DNA of 49,003 nucleotides from Candidatus Anoxychlamydiales bacterium (GCA_011065045.1 JAAKFN010000001.1:1-49003); one strand, 5' to 3'. Shown: positions 26,301 to 31,449, counted from the stretch's first letter. The notes: generated by a model from the sequence alone, not told the origin. Numbers and translations: made by a program.

Positions 26301-28858
26301 TAGATAGGCTTATAAAAGTTGAAGACTCCTTAAAAAACGCTACAACATATCTTTATGATGCCTTTTACAATGAAAAATTAGATCAAAATGTAAAAAGAAT
26401 AACTACGATTAATCCACTTAAGCAGAAGACTATTAGAATTTTTGATTCATTAGATAGAGAAAGAATAATAGAAAATATCGATCCAAATGGCAAAACAATA
26501 TCCTATGAAGAAAAGTTTTATGATGATAATGGAAATTTAACAAAGCAAGTAAGCTCGATTTACATAAATCCCGATGAAATATCAAAAACTATTACAACTA
26601 TATGGCAATACGATGAAATGAATAGGCTTACTGAATTAACAGAAGCACATGGTTCAAAAAATTCAAAAACTACAAAATACTCTTATACCGATAAAGGACT
26701 AATAGAAAAAATAATCAAACCTGATCTAAATGTTTTGTTTTATGAGTATGGTTCTCTTGGAAATAATACAAGAATATATTCTTCAAAAAAAGATATTGAT
26801 AATCGTTTTGAATATAACAAGTTAAATCAAGTAGTGTTAGCAAGAGATGCAGATGATTTTACAACAAGAAGGAAATATGATATTTTTGGCAATATTTTAG
26901 AAGAGGGTTTACCCAATGGTCTTTCAATTTCAAATGAATATGATCTTTTAAACAATAAAATAAAAACAGCATTTCAGGATGGATCTTCTGTAGAATATAA
27001 ATATAATCCCATATATCTAAAAGAAATAATAAGAAAAGATAAAAATGGTTTTGAGTTATATAAACATGAATATTTAAAGTATGATTTATCCGGTAACTTA
27101 TTAAAAGAAAATCTAATCTTAGACTCAGGCGACGTTGAATATTTCATTGATAAACTCTCTAGAGTAACAAAAATAAAAACTAAATTTCATGATCAACTAT
27201 CTGAGTATGACTCAATTGGAAGAATATCAAATATCAGTTGGGATTATTTTTTAAAAGATAGTTATAATTATTCACATGACGATCTAAATCAAATCATTTC
27301 TGAAACTGGATTATTTTCAAATAATTATCAATTTGATTCACATAATAATAGACTACTCAAAAACGAGGACTTGTATAAAGTAAATGATCTGCATCAAGTA
27401 GATGCTACTCATGATTCTGAATTTGAATATGATGAAAATGGAAATCTTATTAAAAAAACCTCCTCAGACGGCTCAGTTTTTTATGAATATGATTCTCTAG
27501 ATAGGTTAATTAGAGTTACAGATCCTTCATTGTATGATTTGGAATTTATATACGATCCGTTTAATAGAAGAATGAGTAAAATTTCAAAATATAATTCATT
27601 GTTCAAACTTGATGATTGTAAATATTTTTTATATGATGGCCAAAATGAAATTGGCTCATTTGATCAGAATTTCAATCAAAAAGAACTTAGGATCCTCTCT
27701 GATACTAATAAAGCTGAAATAGGCTCTGCTATTTCATTTGAGATTGATGGTTATATATATGCTCCAATTTATGATGTTTCAGGAAATGTTGTCTCTTTGA
27801 TTTATAACTCTTCACTGTATGAGCATTATAGATACTCAGCCTTTGGAGAAAGAAAGATTTTTTCCGGTTCAGGTTATGAAAAGAAAAAATCATCTATAAA
27901 TAATCCCTGGCAGTTTTCTTCCAAAAGGATAGATGAAGAAACTAATCTTATCTACTACGGCAGAAGATATTACGATCCGATCTTAGGAAGATGGATTACT
28001 CCCGATCCACAAGGTTTTGCAGATGGACCAAATTTATATGCATTTGTATTAAATTCTCCTCTTACGAGGATTGATTTATATGGGCTAATGGTGTTTCCTG
28101 CTATGATTACAAATCCTAGTTATTCACAAGGCAATCGTTTTTCTGAGGATAATCTTTCTCTTCTTCAAAGATCTTTAGATTCTAAAGAATTTAAAAAAAA
28201 TGTAGTAAATTTTTTCTTTGAAGGAACTCAAACTCAAAAAATTCTTAATAATGAAGATCCTTCTAGAAAAATAAATTTAGGATCAAATGATTTTGCAGAT
28301 GGCAGAAATATAGGGGCTACTTTTGGTATTAATACGACTAGTCAAGAAGCAATGGAATATGGTAAAATAATATCCAATTATTCCGGTGGTAAAAGTGTTC
28401 ATCTTTTACATAATGAAACTAGAGGGGGTTTTTGGGATGTGTCAAGAGCTGGATGTGAAGGGATTTTTCATAAAGACACCAAAAGTGTTAAAATGCAAAA
28501 AGAGATATGGATAGATTATTTATCGAAATCAGATAAAAATTACTTGCATATTTGTCAAAGTGAAGGAGTGACTATCACAAGAAATGCCCTAGAGGGGACT
28601 GATCCGAATTTAAGAAAAAGAATTGATGTCCTTGCTTTTGCTCCCGCAACGTACATAGATGAGGATTTATGTAATTCAAGGATTCATTATATTAGCAGAG
28701 ACTTTGTTCCTTATCTGGACCTTCCGGGATATGCTCGTAACATAGATAGCATAGTTAGGATAAAGCCACATCCCAATGCAAAAAAACTTGATCATAATTT
28801 TAATAGTCCTTCATATCAACAGTCTTTAAAGTACTCCATTGAAAGTTATGCACAATAA
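23354..28858 (+). CDS. RHS/YD-repeat polymorphic toxin with N-terminal signal peptide and ~256-aa C-terminal toxin domain
   Basis: Leader MLRLFFVFFLVNFHIFA. Opening RHS motif VNLMTGQLYINDVDI..GKEPIYFSKSY. Dozens of YD-type repeats follow (YEYD..., Y.YD..GN...). The core terminus is YYGRRYYDPILGRWITPDPQGFADGPNLYAFVLNSPLTRIDLYGL (a DPxGL-type boundary at nt ~28087), followed by an unrelated tip. Confidence 0.9.
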   Translation: MLRLFFVFFLVNFHIFANNFETNFQATVAAEPSVMLEGCVNLMTGQLYINDVDIIAEGKEPIYFSKSYTSMFSAYSLDDLIGRWSEIEDAVNEGWGGDKHVMAYIGYDYERKKDYYIRANRRADVYDPNGTMLSFEFPQVKPPKKKFWDTKEEKKEKKQEFEDEKAKTRPLKLIENQNFYQKAITNAKDNYKNTTAKAHGEHNLRVKSPNGTIRHYYRKDAAFDPYSLEWEILPNGNKLEYIVKDHELKEIKSKSPSGKIYARLTLNKIYQKDKTLVVETNSQKTIKYEYKKEKIKDENKEKKEKSFLGHKTSPYGDEHFEYHKNKFFLLKTCIYPQNRLFQIEYYDNNKKKDWKRVSELKSYLGKAQNLKTLYRIYYEQIPELNKTKGQTTLIDANGNQTKYFFSTKLRLEGIERFENVNGGQKFKNFEEFIWRDNGFFLGQIYINEHRQRVKAIRNIYGGNTGNIISQITYGNISGKCNKSIELGSDNLPIDNGIEMYVKNYTYSNNNQIKSEIDQNSFGTEYTYLTMKIHGEDFETSLPLTKFTIFNSEIKKRIFYSYDNDNVLIEEIEDNGVSRQKENLEGVTRRIIKRIEPQTKEPYGLAEYVKEYYYDIDEKVEKFLKKEKYEYSKSCKVIKKHVFGSDDELKYTLNYEYDPSNDNLISENDPLGRKAFYNYDKNSNKIYEKTFTNKEIYFEYDLCNRLVSKTIKDKKQNYIEEYEYDAKHNKISQKDFYGNITRFNYDSLGNVIEEISPKTEDCFGIASFSKKCFEYDAFSRQIKKTDEKGNSTNISYNIFDQPIKIEYPDATTEEFEYNLDGTLKHHIDQIKTKIEYTYDYLKRVISKTILSPTNDVLSEEFFEYDAFNLISKTDRAGNITKYTYDGAGRKIKEEVFSEAQSNLSKEEYFYDELGFLEKTFKADSLFTIYKRDFLGRVLEEKQKDINGYELRKVQHQYDDKENKKIIILYISEGESKETKTFDSLDRLIKVEDSLKNATTYLYDAFYNEKLDQNVKRITTINPLKQKTIRIFDSLDRERIIENIDPNGKTISYEEKFYDDNGNLTKQVSSIYINPDEISKTITTIWQYDEMNRLTELTEAHGSKNSKTTKYSYTDKGLIEKIIKPDLNVLFYEYGSLGNNTRIYSSKKDIDNRFEYNKLNQVVLARDADDFTTRRKYDIFGNILEEGLPNGLSISNEYDLLNNKIKTAFQDGSSVEYKYNPIYLKEIIRKDKNGFELYKHEYLKYDLSGNLLKENLILDSGDVEYFIDKLSRVTKIKTKFHDQLSEYDSIGRISNISWDYFLKDSYNYSHDDLNQIISETGLFSNNYQFDSHNNRLLKNEDLYKVNDLHQVDATHDSEFEYDENGNLIKKTSSDGSVFYEYDSLDRLIRVTDPSLYDLEFIYDPFNRRMSKISKYNSLFKLDDCKYFLYDGQNEIGSFDQNFNQKELRILSDTNKAEIGSAISFEIDGYIYAPIYDVSGNVVSLIYNSSLYEHYRYSAFGERKIFSGSGYEKKKSSINNPWQFSSKRIDEETNLIYYGRRYYDPILGRWITPDPQGFADGPNLYAFVLNSPLTRIDLYGLMVFPAMITNPSYSQGNRFSEDNLSLLQRSLDSKEFKKNVVNFFFEGTQTQKILNNEDPSRKINLGSNDFADGRNIGATFGINTTSQEAMEYGKIISNYSGGKSVHLLHNETRGGFWDVSRAGCEGIFHKDTKSVKMQKEIWIDYLSKSDKNYLHICQSEGVTITRNALEGTDPNLRKRIDVLAFAPATYIDEDLCNSRIHYISRDFVPYLDLPGYARNIDSIVRIKPHPNAKKLDHNFNSPSYQQSLKYSIESYAQ

Positions 28859-28871
28859 TAAAGGATCAATT

Positions 28872-29378
28872 ATGAGGTTTGTTAATTTAAGTATTATAGT
28901 AGTTTTGTTTTTTTGTAGCGGTTGTTCTAAAACAGAATACGAAAAAAAACGAAATCTAGAAAATAAAATAATTGGTCAGACATGGAGACAGCTTGAAAAG
29001 GAAAAGAATCTTGTTCCTTTGGGGGAAGGTAAAAGCATAACCCCTGGAAGCGAATATATAGGGTTATATTTTCAGTATTTTAATCCAGTAACAATGGAGG
29101 AAGCTAGAGAACTGGTCATATATGCTGCTGAGACTCTTTTACATAATCTGAATTCAAATGAAAAATTAAATGAATCGATAGATAAACCGTATCCTGTGAG
29201 CTGGATTGAAATTCGTATACATGTATATAATCCCGATTATTCTAATATTCAGCCACCTGGTATTAGCATTATTCACCTTAAAAGAAATACCTTAACATAC
29301 TTAACTGAGGAAAAGCGTTTCGAAATAATCCATAAAGAAACATATGAAGAAGCGTTAGAGAAATTGAAAAATAATTGA
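28872..29378 (+). CDS. Lipoprotein, cognate immunity candidate for the RHS tip (paralog 1)
   Basis: aaagga RBS 7 nt upstream and a signal peptide with lipobox-like FFCSGC. It sits immediately downstream of the toxin stop. The ORF-track start at 28839 lies inside the toxin gene and is less likely. Confidence 0.8.
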   Translation: MRFVNLSIIVVLFFCSGCSKTEYEKKRNLENKIIGQTWRQLEKEKNLVPLGEGKSITPGSEYIGLYFQYFNPVTMEEARELVIYAAETLLHNLNSNEKLNESIDKPYPVSWIEIRIHVYNPDYSNIQPPGISIIHLKRNTLTYLTEEKRFEIIHKETYEEALEKLKNN

Positions 29379-30877: not shown

Positions 30878-30890
30878 TAAAGGATCAATT

Positions 30891-31397
30891 ATGAGAGTTA
30901 TTAATTTAATGGTTATAGGAGCTTTATTTTTTTGTAGCAGTTGTTCTAAAACAGAATACGAAAAAAAACGAGATCTAGAAAATAAAATAATTGGTCAGAC
31001 ATGGAGACAGTTAGAAAAGGAAAAGAATCTTGTCCCTGCAGGCGAGGGCGGTAGTATTGTTGAAGGAGATGAATTTATTGGGCTATATTTTCAATATTTT
31101 AATCCATTAACGATTGGTGAAGCTAGAGAACTGGTCATATATGCTGCTGAAACTTTTTTATATAATCTGAATTCAAATGAAAAATTAAATGAATTAATTA
31201 CTCATCCCTATCCCATGAGATGGATTGAAATTAAAATATTTACATATAACCCAGATTACTCCGATATTGCCCCTCCTGGTATAAGTATTATTCGGTTTAG
31301 AAGAAATAATTTAGAATACATAACTATTGATAAAAAGAATTTAGAAACAATCCATAAAGAAACATACGAAGAAGCGTTAGAGAAACTGAAAAAATAA
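30891..31397 (+). CDS. Lipoprotein immunity paralog 4
   Basis: Same architecture, with lipobox LFFCSSC. It diverges from paralog 3 mainly in the last third. Confidence 0.8.
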   Translation: MRVINLMVIGALFFCSSCSKTEYEKKRDLENKIIGQTWRQLEKEKNLVPAGEGGSIVEGDEFIGLYFQYFNPLTIGEARELVIYAAETFLYNLNSNEKLNELITHPYPMRWIEIKIFTYNPDYSDIAPPGISIIRFRRNNLEYITIDKKNLETIHKETYEEALEKLKK

Positions 31398-31449
31398 TTG
31401 ATGTTATTGCTATTGTTATGGGATATTTTTGTAATAAATAAACTAGATA
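31398..31449 (+). pseudogene. Second, more eroded toxin-tail remnant
   Basis: ttgatgttattgctattgtt...gggatatttttgtaataaat shares the same gatatt/tgtaataa deletion junction as 29379..29462. Confidence 0.45.

Follow-up and report, generated by a model that had tools for sequence, protein, structure and literature searches.

Polymorphic toxin systems are thought to diversify by swaps of whole toxin domains at a fixed boundary. Among systems of the Rhs and contact-dependent growth inhibition (CDI) types, C-terminal displacement and orphan toxin-immunity modules have been described (Poole et al. 2011, PMC3150448; Jackson et al. 2009 and Koskiniemi et al. 2014, as cited in PMC5361080); because orphans are homologous to the main gene, recombination can load one of them onto it, and displaced tips accumulate downstream. 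Arrays of type VI secretion system (T6SS) immunity genes in Vibrio cholerae have been attributed to sequential effector displacement, with recombination anchored in a conserved upstream segment, and there is precedent in that species for an effector 3' end shifted downstream together with its immunity gene (Kirchberger et al. 2017, PMC5361080). Rhs toxins have already been catalogued in Chlamydiae (PMC3482391). Here we analyze an RHS toxin locus within a stretch of 49,003 nucleotides (nt), hereafter the window, from the Candidatus Anoxychlamydiales metagenome-assembled genome (MAG) K940chlam5 (GCA_011065045.1, JAAKFN010000001.1:1-49003; contig GC content, 29%). Like Rhs/CDI orphan modules, the locus has a full-length delivery gene with silent fragments of the toxin 3' end downstream of it, each accompanied by an immunity gene; like the V. 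cholerae arrays, it places several orphan immunity genes downstream of one effector. On balance, the evidence leans towards a polymorphic-toxin locus that diversifies below the level of the toxin domain, through recombination of a unit made up of the toxin tail and its immunity gene.

Downstream of the RHS gene, four paralogous immunity open reading frames (ORFs) are interleaved with copies or remnants of the toxin 3' end, with a repeat period of ~715 nt (Table 1). Tandem Repeats Finder, run on the window with a period limit of 500, reported no repeat, because the period of the array exceeds that limit. All four immunity starts proposed in the original prediction, which had been made from the sequence alone, were confirmed as ORFs. 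The same prediction described the spacers between them as copies of the RHS 3' end; this holds for the second and third spacers (tail2 and tail3), whose reading frames match that of the RHS 3' end up to and including the SYAQ-stop, whereas the first spacer is an 84-nt dead remnant (frag1). Nucleotide alignment of the RHS 3' end, the orphan tails, and the immunity genes showed that, across the 159-nt segment that begins with the Asp205 codon and ends at the stop, tail2 and tail3 share 76-77% identity with the resident tail and 88% with each other, and that pairwise identity among the four immunity paralogs is 80-93%. Over the 18 nt immediately 5' of the Asp205 codon, the orphans are 33-56% identical to the resident gene, and the 5' edge of good orphan-resident homology is exactly the Asp205 codon of the DFVPY motif. 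Sequence specific to tail2 or tail3 reads GATCCCATGAGATAT... At the 3' end, the junction of toxin stop codon, ribosome-binding site (RBS), and immunity ATG (AAGTTATGCACAATAATAAAGGATCAATTATG) is kept in the cassettes, the collapsed frag1 included; the alignment bears out its predicted conservation, with a 23-nt exact match between the resident and tail2 junctions. The tail2 and tail3 ORFs stop 13 nt 5' of the immunity ATG, and each orphan toxin fragment has an immunity gene directly 3' of it.

The repeated unit comprises the last 52 toxin codons and the immunity gene. Asp205 (the D of DFVPY; codon 28700-28702) and His236 (in DHNF; codon 28793-28795) lie within this unit, as had been anticipated for the putative catalytic Asp and His. 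Together with Ser158, which is excluded from the unit, they form the sole invariant columns in an alignment of 49 diverse homologs, in the canonical Ser-Asp-His order of a catalytic triad, and the alpha/beta-hydrolase model of the domain is consistent with this assignment. The orphans start at approximately amino acid (aa) 195-205 of the 256-aa toxin domain, without Ser158 and without a demarcating motif. The tail contains the Asp loop, two short helices, the last strand, the His loop, and the C-terminal helix (aa 241-255). Because it holds Asp205 and His236 but not Ser158, it is a non-autonomous quarter of the enzyme. It cannot fold alone.

Six orphans from three assemblies have one junction in common: tail2, tail3, and frag1 in the window, one fragment in L006, and tails t1 and t2 in L025 (relatives are identified by L and P numbers). 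This junction lies directly against the immunity stop codon and runs as far as the Asp codon (…TTGAG…GCATCG.ACAT. followed by GAYTTTGT). Resident toxins read CATTAT.T.AGCAGA before the GAC of the Asp codon, and the orphan junction occurs in none of them. The occurrence of a common junction in six orphans therefore indicates that the truncated unit itself was propagated.

Comparison with L006 revealed a breakpoint at the 5' edge of the unit. Of the 657 toxin-body nt (28034-28690), 9 differ between the window and L006 (1.4% divergence, 98.6% identity), as do 119 of the 688 nt between 28691 and the 3' end of the first immunity gene (17% divergence); the maximum chi-square test placed the breakpoint at 28691 (P ~1e-26). 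The resident immunity gene of L006 is a mosaic of the orphan types found in the window: it has 96-100% identity to window orphan units u3 and u4 over long stretches, and its match to imm1 is poor. The DPM and KFH patch types, which are orphans in the window, are found on a near-complete toxin in L002, and the LLEGIKN helix type is an orphan in L025 and resident in L001, L003, and L006. Downstream of Asp205, polymorphisms are common to orphan and resident tails.

Between tail2 and tail3, the ratio of nonsynonymous to synonymous substitution rates (dN/dS) is 0.21-0.25. Within the DFVPY-to-SPSY block, dN/dS is 0.14, with 7.5 synonymous differences at 22.3 sites and 5.5 nonsynonymous differences at 94.7 sites (Fisher P=0.0009); the C-terminal helix has zero synonymous and four nonsynonymous changes. 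Given this protein-level constraint, the tails appear to have diverged mostly as parts of working toxins.

Among close alleles, the most variable stretches within the unit are aa 211-221 and aa 243-253 of the C-terminal helix. These are the two variable stretches noted in the original prediction; a third, small one (KKL versus KFH) is also present. Both stretches co-vary with two variable patches of the immunity protein (aa ~49-63 and ~100-155), and they do so in independent strain pairs. L009 and L013, for example, are ~95% identical except in the last ~15 toxin codons (63-72%) and immunity codons ~121-155 (55-62%). The window combines a unique helix, QQSLKYSIES, with a unique C-terminal half of imm1, and L006 combines a unique stretch at aa 211-218 with a unique N-terminal immunity patch. 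The ratio of nonsynonymous to synonymous polymorphism (pN/pS) is highest in the C-terminal helix (0.83) and reaches 0.35-0.42 in the immunity patches, compared with 0.04-0.12 in conserved immunity segments. This pattern suggests that the toxin stretches and immunity patches may contain the specificity contacts between the two proteins.

Similar arrays are present in several relatives. The close strain L006/L007 (K1060chlam4) has the order toxin, immunity gene, frag1, immunity gene, and its frag1 is almost identical to that of the window, including the Asp-to-Gly change. We considered this near-identity as a sign of function and rejected it, as it equals the background divergence of the two strains. 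L025, with immunity genes ~70% identical, has the order tail, immunity gene, tail, immunity gene with the same junction, one of its tails carrying a stop codon. Among more distant relatives, L012, L021, L023, and L026 (toxins 30-41% identical) have tails of 22-60 aa between immunity paralogs, some intact and some stop-riddled, and L014 (toxin 60% identical) has a ~80-aa tail broken by an insertion, followed by a frameshifted immunity gene. Judging from these five distant branches, tail-plus-immunity arrays are a recurrent, not an obligatory, trait of the toxin family, with a lineage-dependent start point. The close strains L003 and L017 each have one immunity gene followed by the same downstream membrane-protein gene as in the window; in L003, the two genes are separated by a frag4-like remnant.

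The distal end of the window's array (31398-31475) bears on the history of such strains. The first ~7 codons of the downstream 125-aa membrane-protein gene (ATGAGAGAGATTAAAAATATG) resemble the start of an immunity gene (ATGAGAGTTATTAATTTAATG). Given this resemblance and the adjacent frag4, the distal end has the appearance of a deleted unit that is joined to the following gene, which suggests that "single-copy" strains were derived from arrays. In L010, a 75-aa copy of the N-terminus of the first immunity gene (2854-3081) lies at the end of another array, so immunity genes too appear to be left behind as partial copies.

Under the explanation that we favor, the array would have been founded by one ancestral segmental duplication that reached from a point inside the toxin gene, just 5' of the Asp205 codon, to a point just past the immunity stop codon; this would have produced a ~715-bp repeat of toxin tail and immunity gene, and every unit would have inherited the fossil junction. 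Out-of-register homologous recombination would then expand and contract the array and re-assort short patches among the units themselves, between resident and orphan tails, and with DNA of related strains. When a new unit was inserted beside the toxin body, the former resident tail would be pushed downstream and become an orphan behind the inherited junction; such displacement could explain both the common junction and the coding-type divergence of the tails. Exchange with the resident gene would be limited to the last 52 codons and the immunity gene because, upstream of Asp205, the orphans have the diverged junction. The cell would gain several immunity specificities from the array, and the population would keep producing new matched combinations of toxin tail and immunity gene. 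A stronger proposal, which we hold only tentatively, is that the array is a working silent-cassette system in which orphan tails donate to the resident toxin's C-terminal segment and matching immunity gene, through gene conversion or deletion, with the conserved DFVPY-to-SPSY block as the anchor. If this is true, almost all specificity would lie within the final ~50 residues, and a switch would leave the remaining enzyme unaltered; such a modular "specificity tail" on an enzyme toxin would be recurrent across environmental Chlamydiae.

Several observations count against recombination of a tail-plus-immunity unit. All sequences compared are metagenome assemblies. When related strains were examined for replacement of a resident tail by an orphan tail, no recombinant with tail2 or tail3 on the toxin body was found among the relatives compared. 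We infer the recombination mechanism and any orphan-to-resident transfer; the direction of transfer is unproven because no resident tail in the other strains compared closely matches tail2 or tail3, and either direction fits the data. In the sequences compared, exchange is a mosaic of short patches and not a clean swap of a whole cassette; the predicted sub-domain exchange unit is upheld in its extent (52 codons plus the immunity gene) and by the L006 breakpoint, but not as a cassette that moves intact. Exact matches between resident and orphan tails extend over 18-23 nt, compared with 38-109 nt among the immunity paralogs; most recombination would therefore be expected inside the immunity genes. 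Many tails are pseudogenized: frag1 has its Asp changed to Gly and a deletion, L025 t1 contains a stop codon, and L023 t3 and the tail of L014 are also decayed. One variable toxin patch (aa 121-131) falls outside the repeated unit, and the co-variation involves few sequences and physically linked sites. The downstream lipoproteins are predicted, from their position and this co-variation, to be periplasm-facing immunity proteins. L008 has three immunity genes separated by 9-nt spacers, with no tails, and tails in other lineages start at ~aa 160, 178, 213, or 228. This last point also bears on DFVPY, which had been proposed as the recombination anchor: the edge of homology does lie at its Asp205 codon, but because the tails of other lineages start elsewhere and longer orphans exist, the boundary is specific to this lineage and is not a family-wide anchor.

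The main rival, which we consider unlikely, is pure amplification of immunity genes, with the toxin 3' ends as passengers of the duplication endpoint that decay without being re-used. It would account for the dead tails (those just listed and frag4), for the array without tails in L008, for start points that vary between lineages, and for the short exact homology between resident and orphan tails. It does not account for purifying selection between tail2 and tail3 (dN/dS 0.14-0.25; P about 0.001-0.007) or for the sharp step in homology at Asp205, with downstream polymorphisms common to resident tails; the window/L006 breakpoint at the 5' edge of the unit and the unit types that are resident in some strains and orphans in others also argue against it. 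The tails could instead be eroded classical orphans, that is, full-length orphan toxins that were displaced at the DPxGL boundary and then each lost the 5' part independently. Longer orphans do occur in relatives (227 aa in L002, 184 aa in L010 and P0099, at least 97 aa in L022, and ~80 aa in L014); however, separate erosion events would leave different ends, whereas the orphans of this lineage join the immunity stop identically in all three assemblies, and we regard independent erosion as improbable.

We assign a similarly low probability to a cis-acting role, in which the tail is kept for expression of the immunity gene, via either an internal promoter or translational coupling at the stop/RBS/ATG junction. 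Retention of that junction even in the collapsed frag1 and the short distance from the ends of the tail2 and tail3 frames to the immunity ATG would both be expected if this were so, but the last ~25 nt would suffice for the purpose, and 9-nt spacers suffice for the immunity genes of L008. Moreover, low dN/dS and retained catalytic residues amount to conservation at the protein level, which an RNA or DNA signal would not impose. A scan for promoters and terminators found no signal above shuffled sequence, with 16 sigma-70-like sites compared with 22.4 expected, leaving an internal promoter in the tails unsupported. Least probable of all, to the point of being very doubtful, is an assembly artefact, namely that the metagenome assembler concatenated strain variants of one toxin-immunity locus. 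In its favor, the window derives from a MAG, and identity between the repeats is 80-93%; yet a separately assembled scaffold in the European Nucleotide Archive carries the same array with 1 mismatch in 8507 nt, an immunity stop followed by a tail is a junction that a single-copy locus does not have, and comparable arrays occur in many further assemblies.

The RHS protein contains RHS/YD repeats of the shell type (Pfam RHS_repeat, E=4e-44), and its core is 92-96% identical at the aa level to those of L003 and L006. A core-end motif of the PxxxxDPxGL type (...YYDPILGRWITPDPQGFADGPNLYAF...LYGL, aa 1540-1578) precedes the variable C-terminal toxin, with the domain boundary at DPQGFADG...LYGL. The N-terminus (encoded at 23354-23420) is hydrophobic and resembles a signal peptide. 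Pfam detected no PAAR, VgrG, or other delivery domain in the RHS protein.

Sequence searches with the toxin domain against Pfam and PDB returned no usable match (in Pfam, none even at E≤10). AlphaFold2, using the 49-sequence alignment, produced a model with a predicted local distance difference test (pLDDT) score of 87.5, and the top Foldseek matches to this model were cutinases, PETases, and esterases (probability 1.0; best E=3.8e-6; TM-scores 0.35-0.57). Based on this model, the RHS C-terminal domain is probably an alpha/beta-hydrolase toxin, either an esterase or a lipase. An exhaustive profile-free search identified 954 representative clusters at E≤1e-3, many of which are C-termini of ~1800-aa proteins; this number depends on the exhaustive search, as a word-indexed search gave only two, then seven, relatives of the toxin. 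One relative, at L002 889-1897, is a 227-aa near-complete toxin domain with no Rhs part, which is accompanied by an immunity gene and lies directly 3' of a glycosyltransferase gene. The coverage of that contig is very low (0.94x), and the arrangement could represent a toxin at another locus, either stand-alone or orphan, or the contig could be chimeric.

Some relatives of the toxin (P0098, P0099, L009, and L005) are linked to the N-terminal alpha/beta-hydrolase-like part of DUF687. P0098, P0099, and L009 match the Pfam DUF687 profile (PF05095) with 33, 46, and 31.8 bits, respectively, against a cutoff of 25 bits, and these matches cover only the N-terminal ~200 profile positions (the N-terminal third). 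DUF687 is a chlamydial family that has been classed as alpha/beta-hydrolase-like, described with a C-terminal transmembrane bundle, and reported to have lost its catalytic residues (PMC11878206); members such as CT326 and CPn0066 are putative inclusion-membrane proteins of pathogenic Chlamydia (PMC3048545). The window toxin domain falls below the Pfam gathering threshold for DUF687 and is without the C-terminal transmembrane bundle; it is related to DUF687 and is not a member. In contrast to DUF687 proteins, the Rhs toxins retain the complete Ser-Asp-His triad. The two groups may have a common origin.

Each of the four immunity paralogs has a lipoprotein-type N-terminus (…FFCS[SG]C), and the other three are 75-80% identical to imm1 at the aa level. 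The imm3 gene is a hybrid, similar to imm4 in its 5' half (105-nt exact match) and to imm2 in its 3' half (109-nt exact match). Searches of Pfam and PDB with the immunity protein sequences gave no usable match. The AlphaFold2 model of the immunity protein (pLDDT 93) had no match in a PDB fold search at E≤0.001 (best E=0.015), and this predicted structure may represent an undescribed immunity fold. The family contains 95 homologs, nearly all from Chlamydiae and a few from Silvanigrellaceae.

A HicB-like, helix-turn-helix (HTH) antitoxin-type gene (22673-23098, + strand; HTH_3, E=4e-5) lies just 5' of the RHS gene; its UPF0150/HicB matches are weak. Beyond the array, a Fic-domain gene (31846-33346, - strand) consists of two overlapping ORFs of 398 aa and 106 aa, and only the short ORF is matched by Pfam Fic; this split is probably due to a frameshift or marks a pseudogene. 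L006 carries a Fic gene at the corresponding position.

Table 1. Positions of the RHS toxin gene, the tail-plus-immunity array, and the gene at its distal end, counted from the first nucleotide of the window
Feature	Position	Strand	Remarks
RHS/YD-repeat protein gene	23354-28858	+	1834-aa ORF; hydrophobic N-terminus; Pfam RHS_repeat, E=4e-44
C-terminal toxin domain (predicted alpha/beta hydrolase)	28088-28858	+	256 aa; follows DPQGFADG...LYGL; AlphaFold2 pLDDT 87.5; Foldseek
Ser158 codon (in QSEG), putative nucleophile	28559-28561	+	Invariant in 49-sequence alignment; outside repeated unit
Resident tail	28700-28858	+	Asp205 codon through His236 and C-terminal helix to stop; segment common to orphans
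Toxin-stop/RBS/immunity-ATG junction	28843-28874	+	23-nt exact match with tail2 junction
imm1	28872-29378	+	168-aa predicted lipoprotein (FFCSGC); most divergent paralog, C-terminal half unique
frag1, collapsed tail	29379-29462	+	84 nt; fossil junction plus ~45 nt of tail; Asp to Gly; deletion to RBS
imm2	29463-29972	+	169 aa
tail2	29974-30162	+	62-codon ORF; fossil junction to 30003; intact tail from Asp (30004) to SYAQ-stop
imm3	30176-30682	+	168 aa; imm4/imm2 mosaic
tail3	30683-30877	+	64-codon ORF; fossil junction to 30718; intact tail from Asp (30719) to SYAQ-stop
imm4	30891-31397	+	168 aa; 91% aa identity to resident immunity gene of L006
frag4, doubly collapsed tail remnant	31398-31449	+	52 nt; distal end of array, after imm4; also in single-immunity L003
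Conserved downstream gene	31450-31827	+	125-aa membrane protein; marks array end; aa identity 92% in L003 and L017, ~60% in L006

If recombination of the tail-plus-immunity unit is the correct explanation, the recombining module at this locus would be a quarter of a catalytic domain together with an immunity gene. The immunity-recognition surface would thereby be located for a large uncharacterized toxin family (the 954 representative clusters related to DUF687), and the arrays would provide natural, matched pairs of tail and immunity protein for studying the evolution of specificity in enzyme-inhibitor pairs. Environmental chlamydiae, which are usually seen as host-bound, would keep an actively recombining locus for interbacterial competition.

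Two systems offer partial parallels. Neisseria pilE/pilS is an analogy: an expressed gene lies beside promoterless partial 3' copies, and conserved blocks flank the variable segments. The cassettes in the window differ in that they carry a linked and presumably expressed partner gene, the immunity gene, and nothing seen here points to a dedicated conversion mechanism or to a high rate of switching. The E-group nuclease colicins studied by Riley and colleagues are plasmid-borne soluble bacteriocins that diversified within one family; their variation clusters at the 3' end of the toxin gene and in the neighboring immunity gene, recombination occurs, and some plasmids carry extra immunity genes. 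We know of no tandem array of toxin-tail cassettes in that group, and a literature search for a partial-colicin precedent in ColE9/E5 gave nothing directly usable.

The closest described systems differ from the window in what is repeated and how. In the V. cholerae arrays, the orphan immunity genes come from different families of effector, and each insertion is ascribed to illegitimate recombination; in the window, by contrast, the array is built of homologous tandem repeats that have one founding junction, all four immunity genes are paralogs (80-93% nt identity), and most tails are intact and constrained at the protein level. Classical Rhs/CDI orphans usually retain a whole toxin domain, often an unrelated one, together with the VENN or DPxGL boundary. 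In the window, the orphans belong to one toxin family, their units start ~200 residues into the catalytic domain and contain two of the three triad residues, and a single fossil junction is common to the units.

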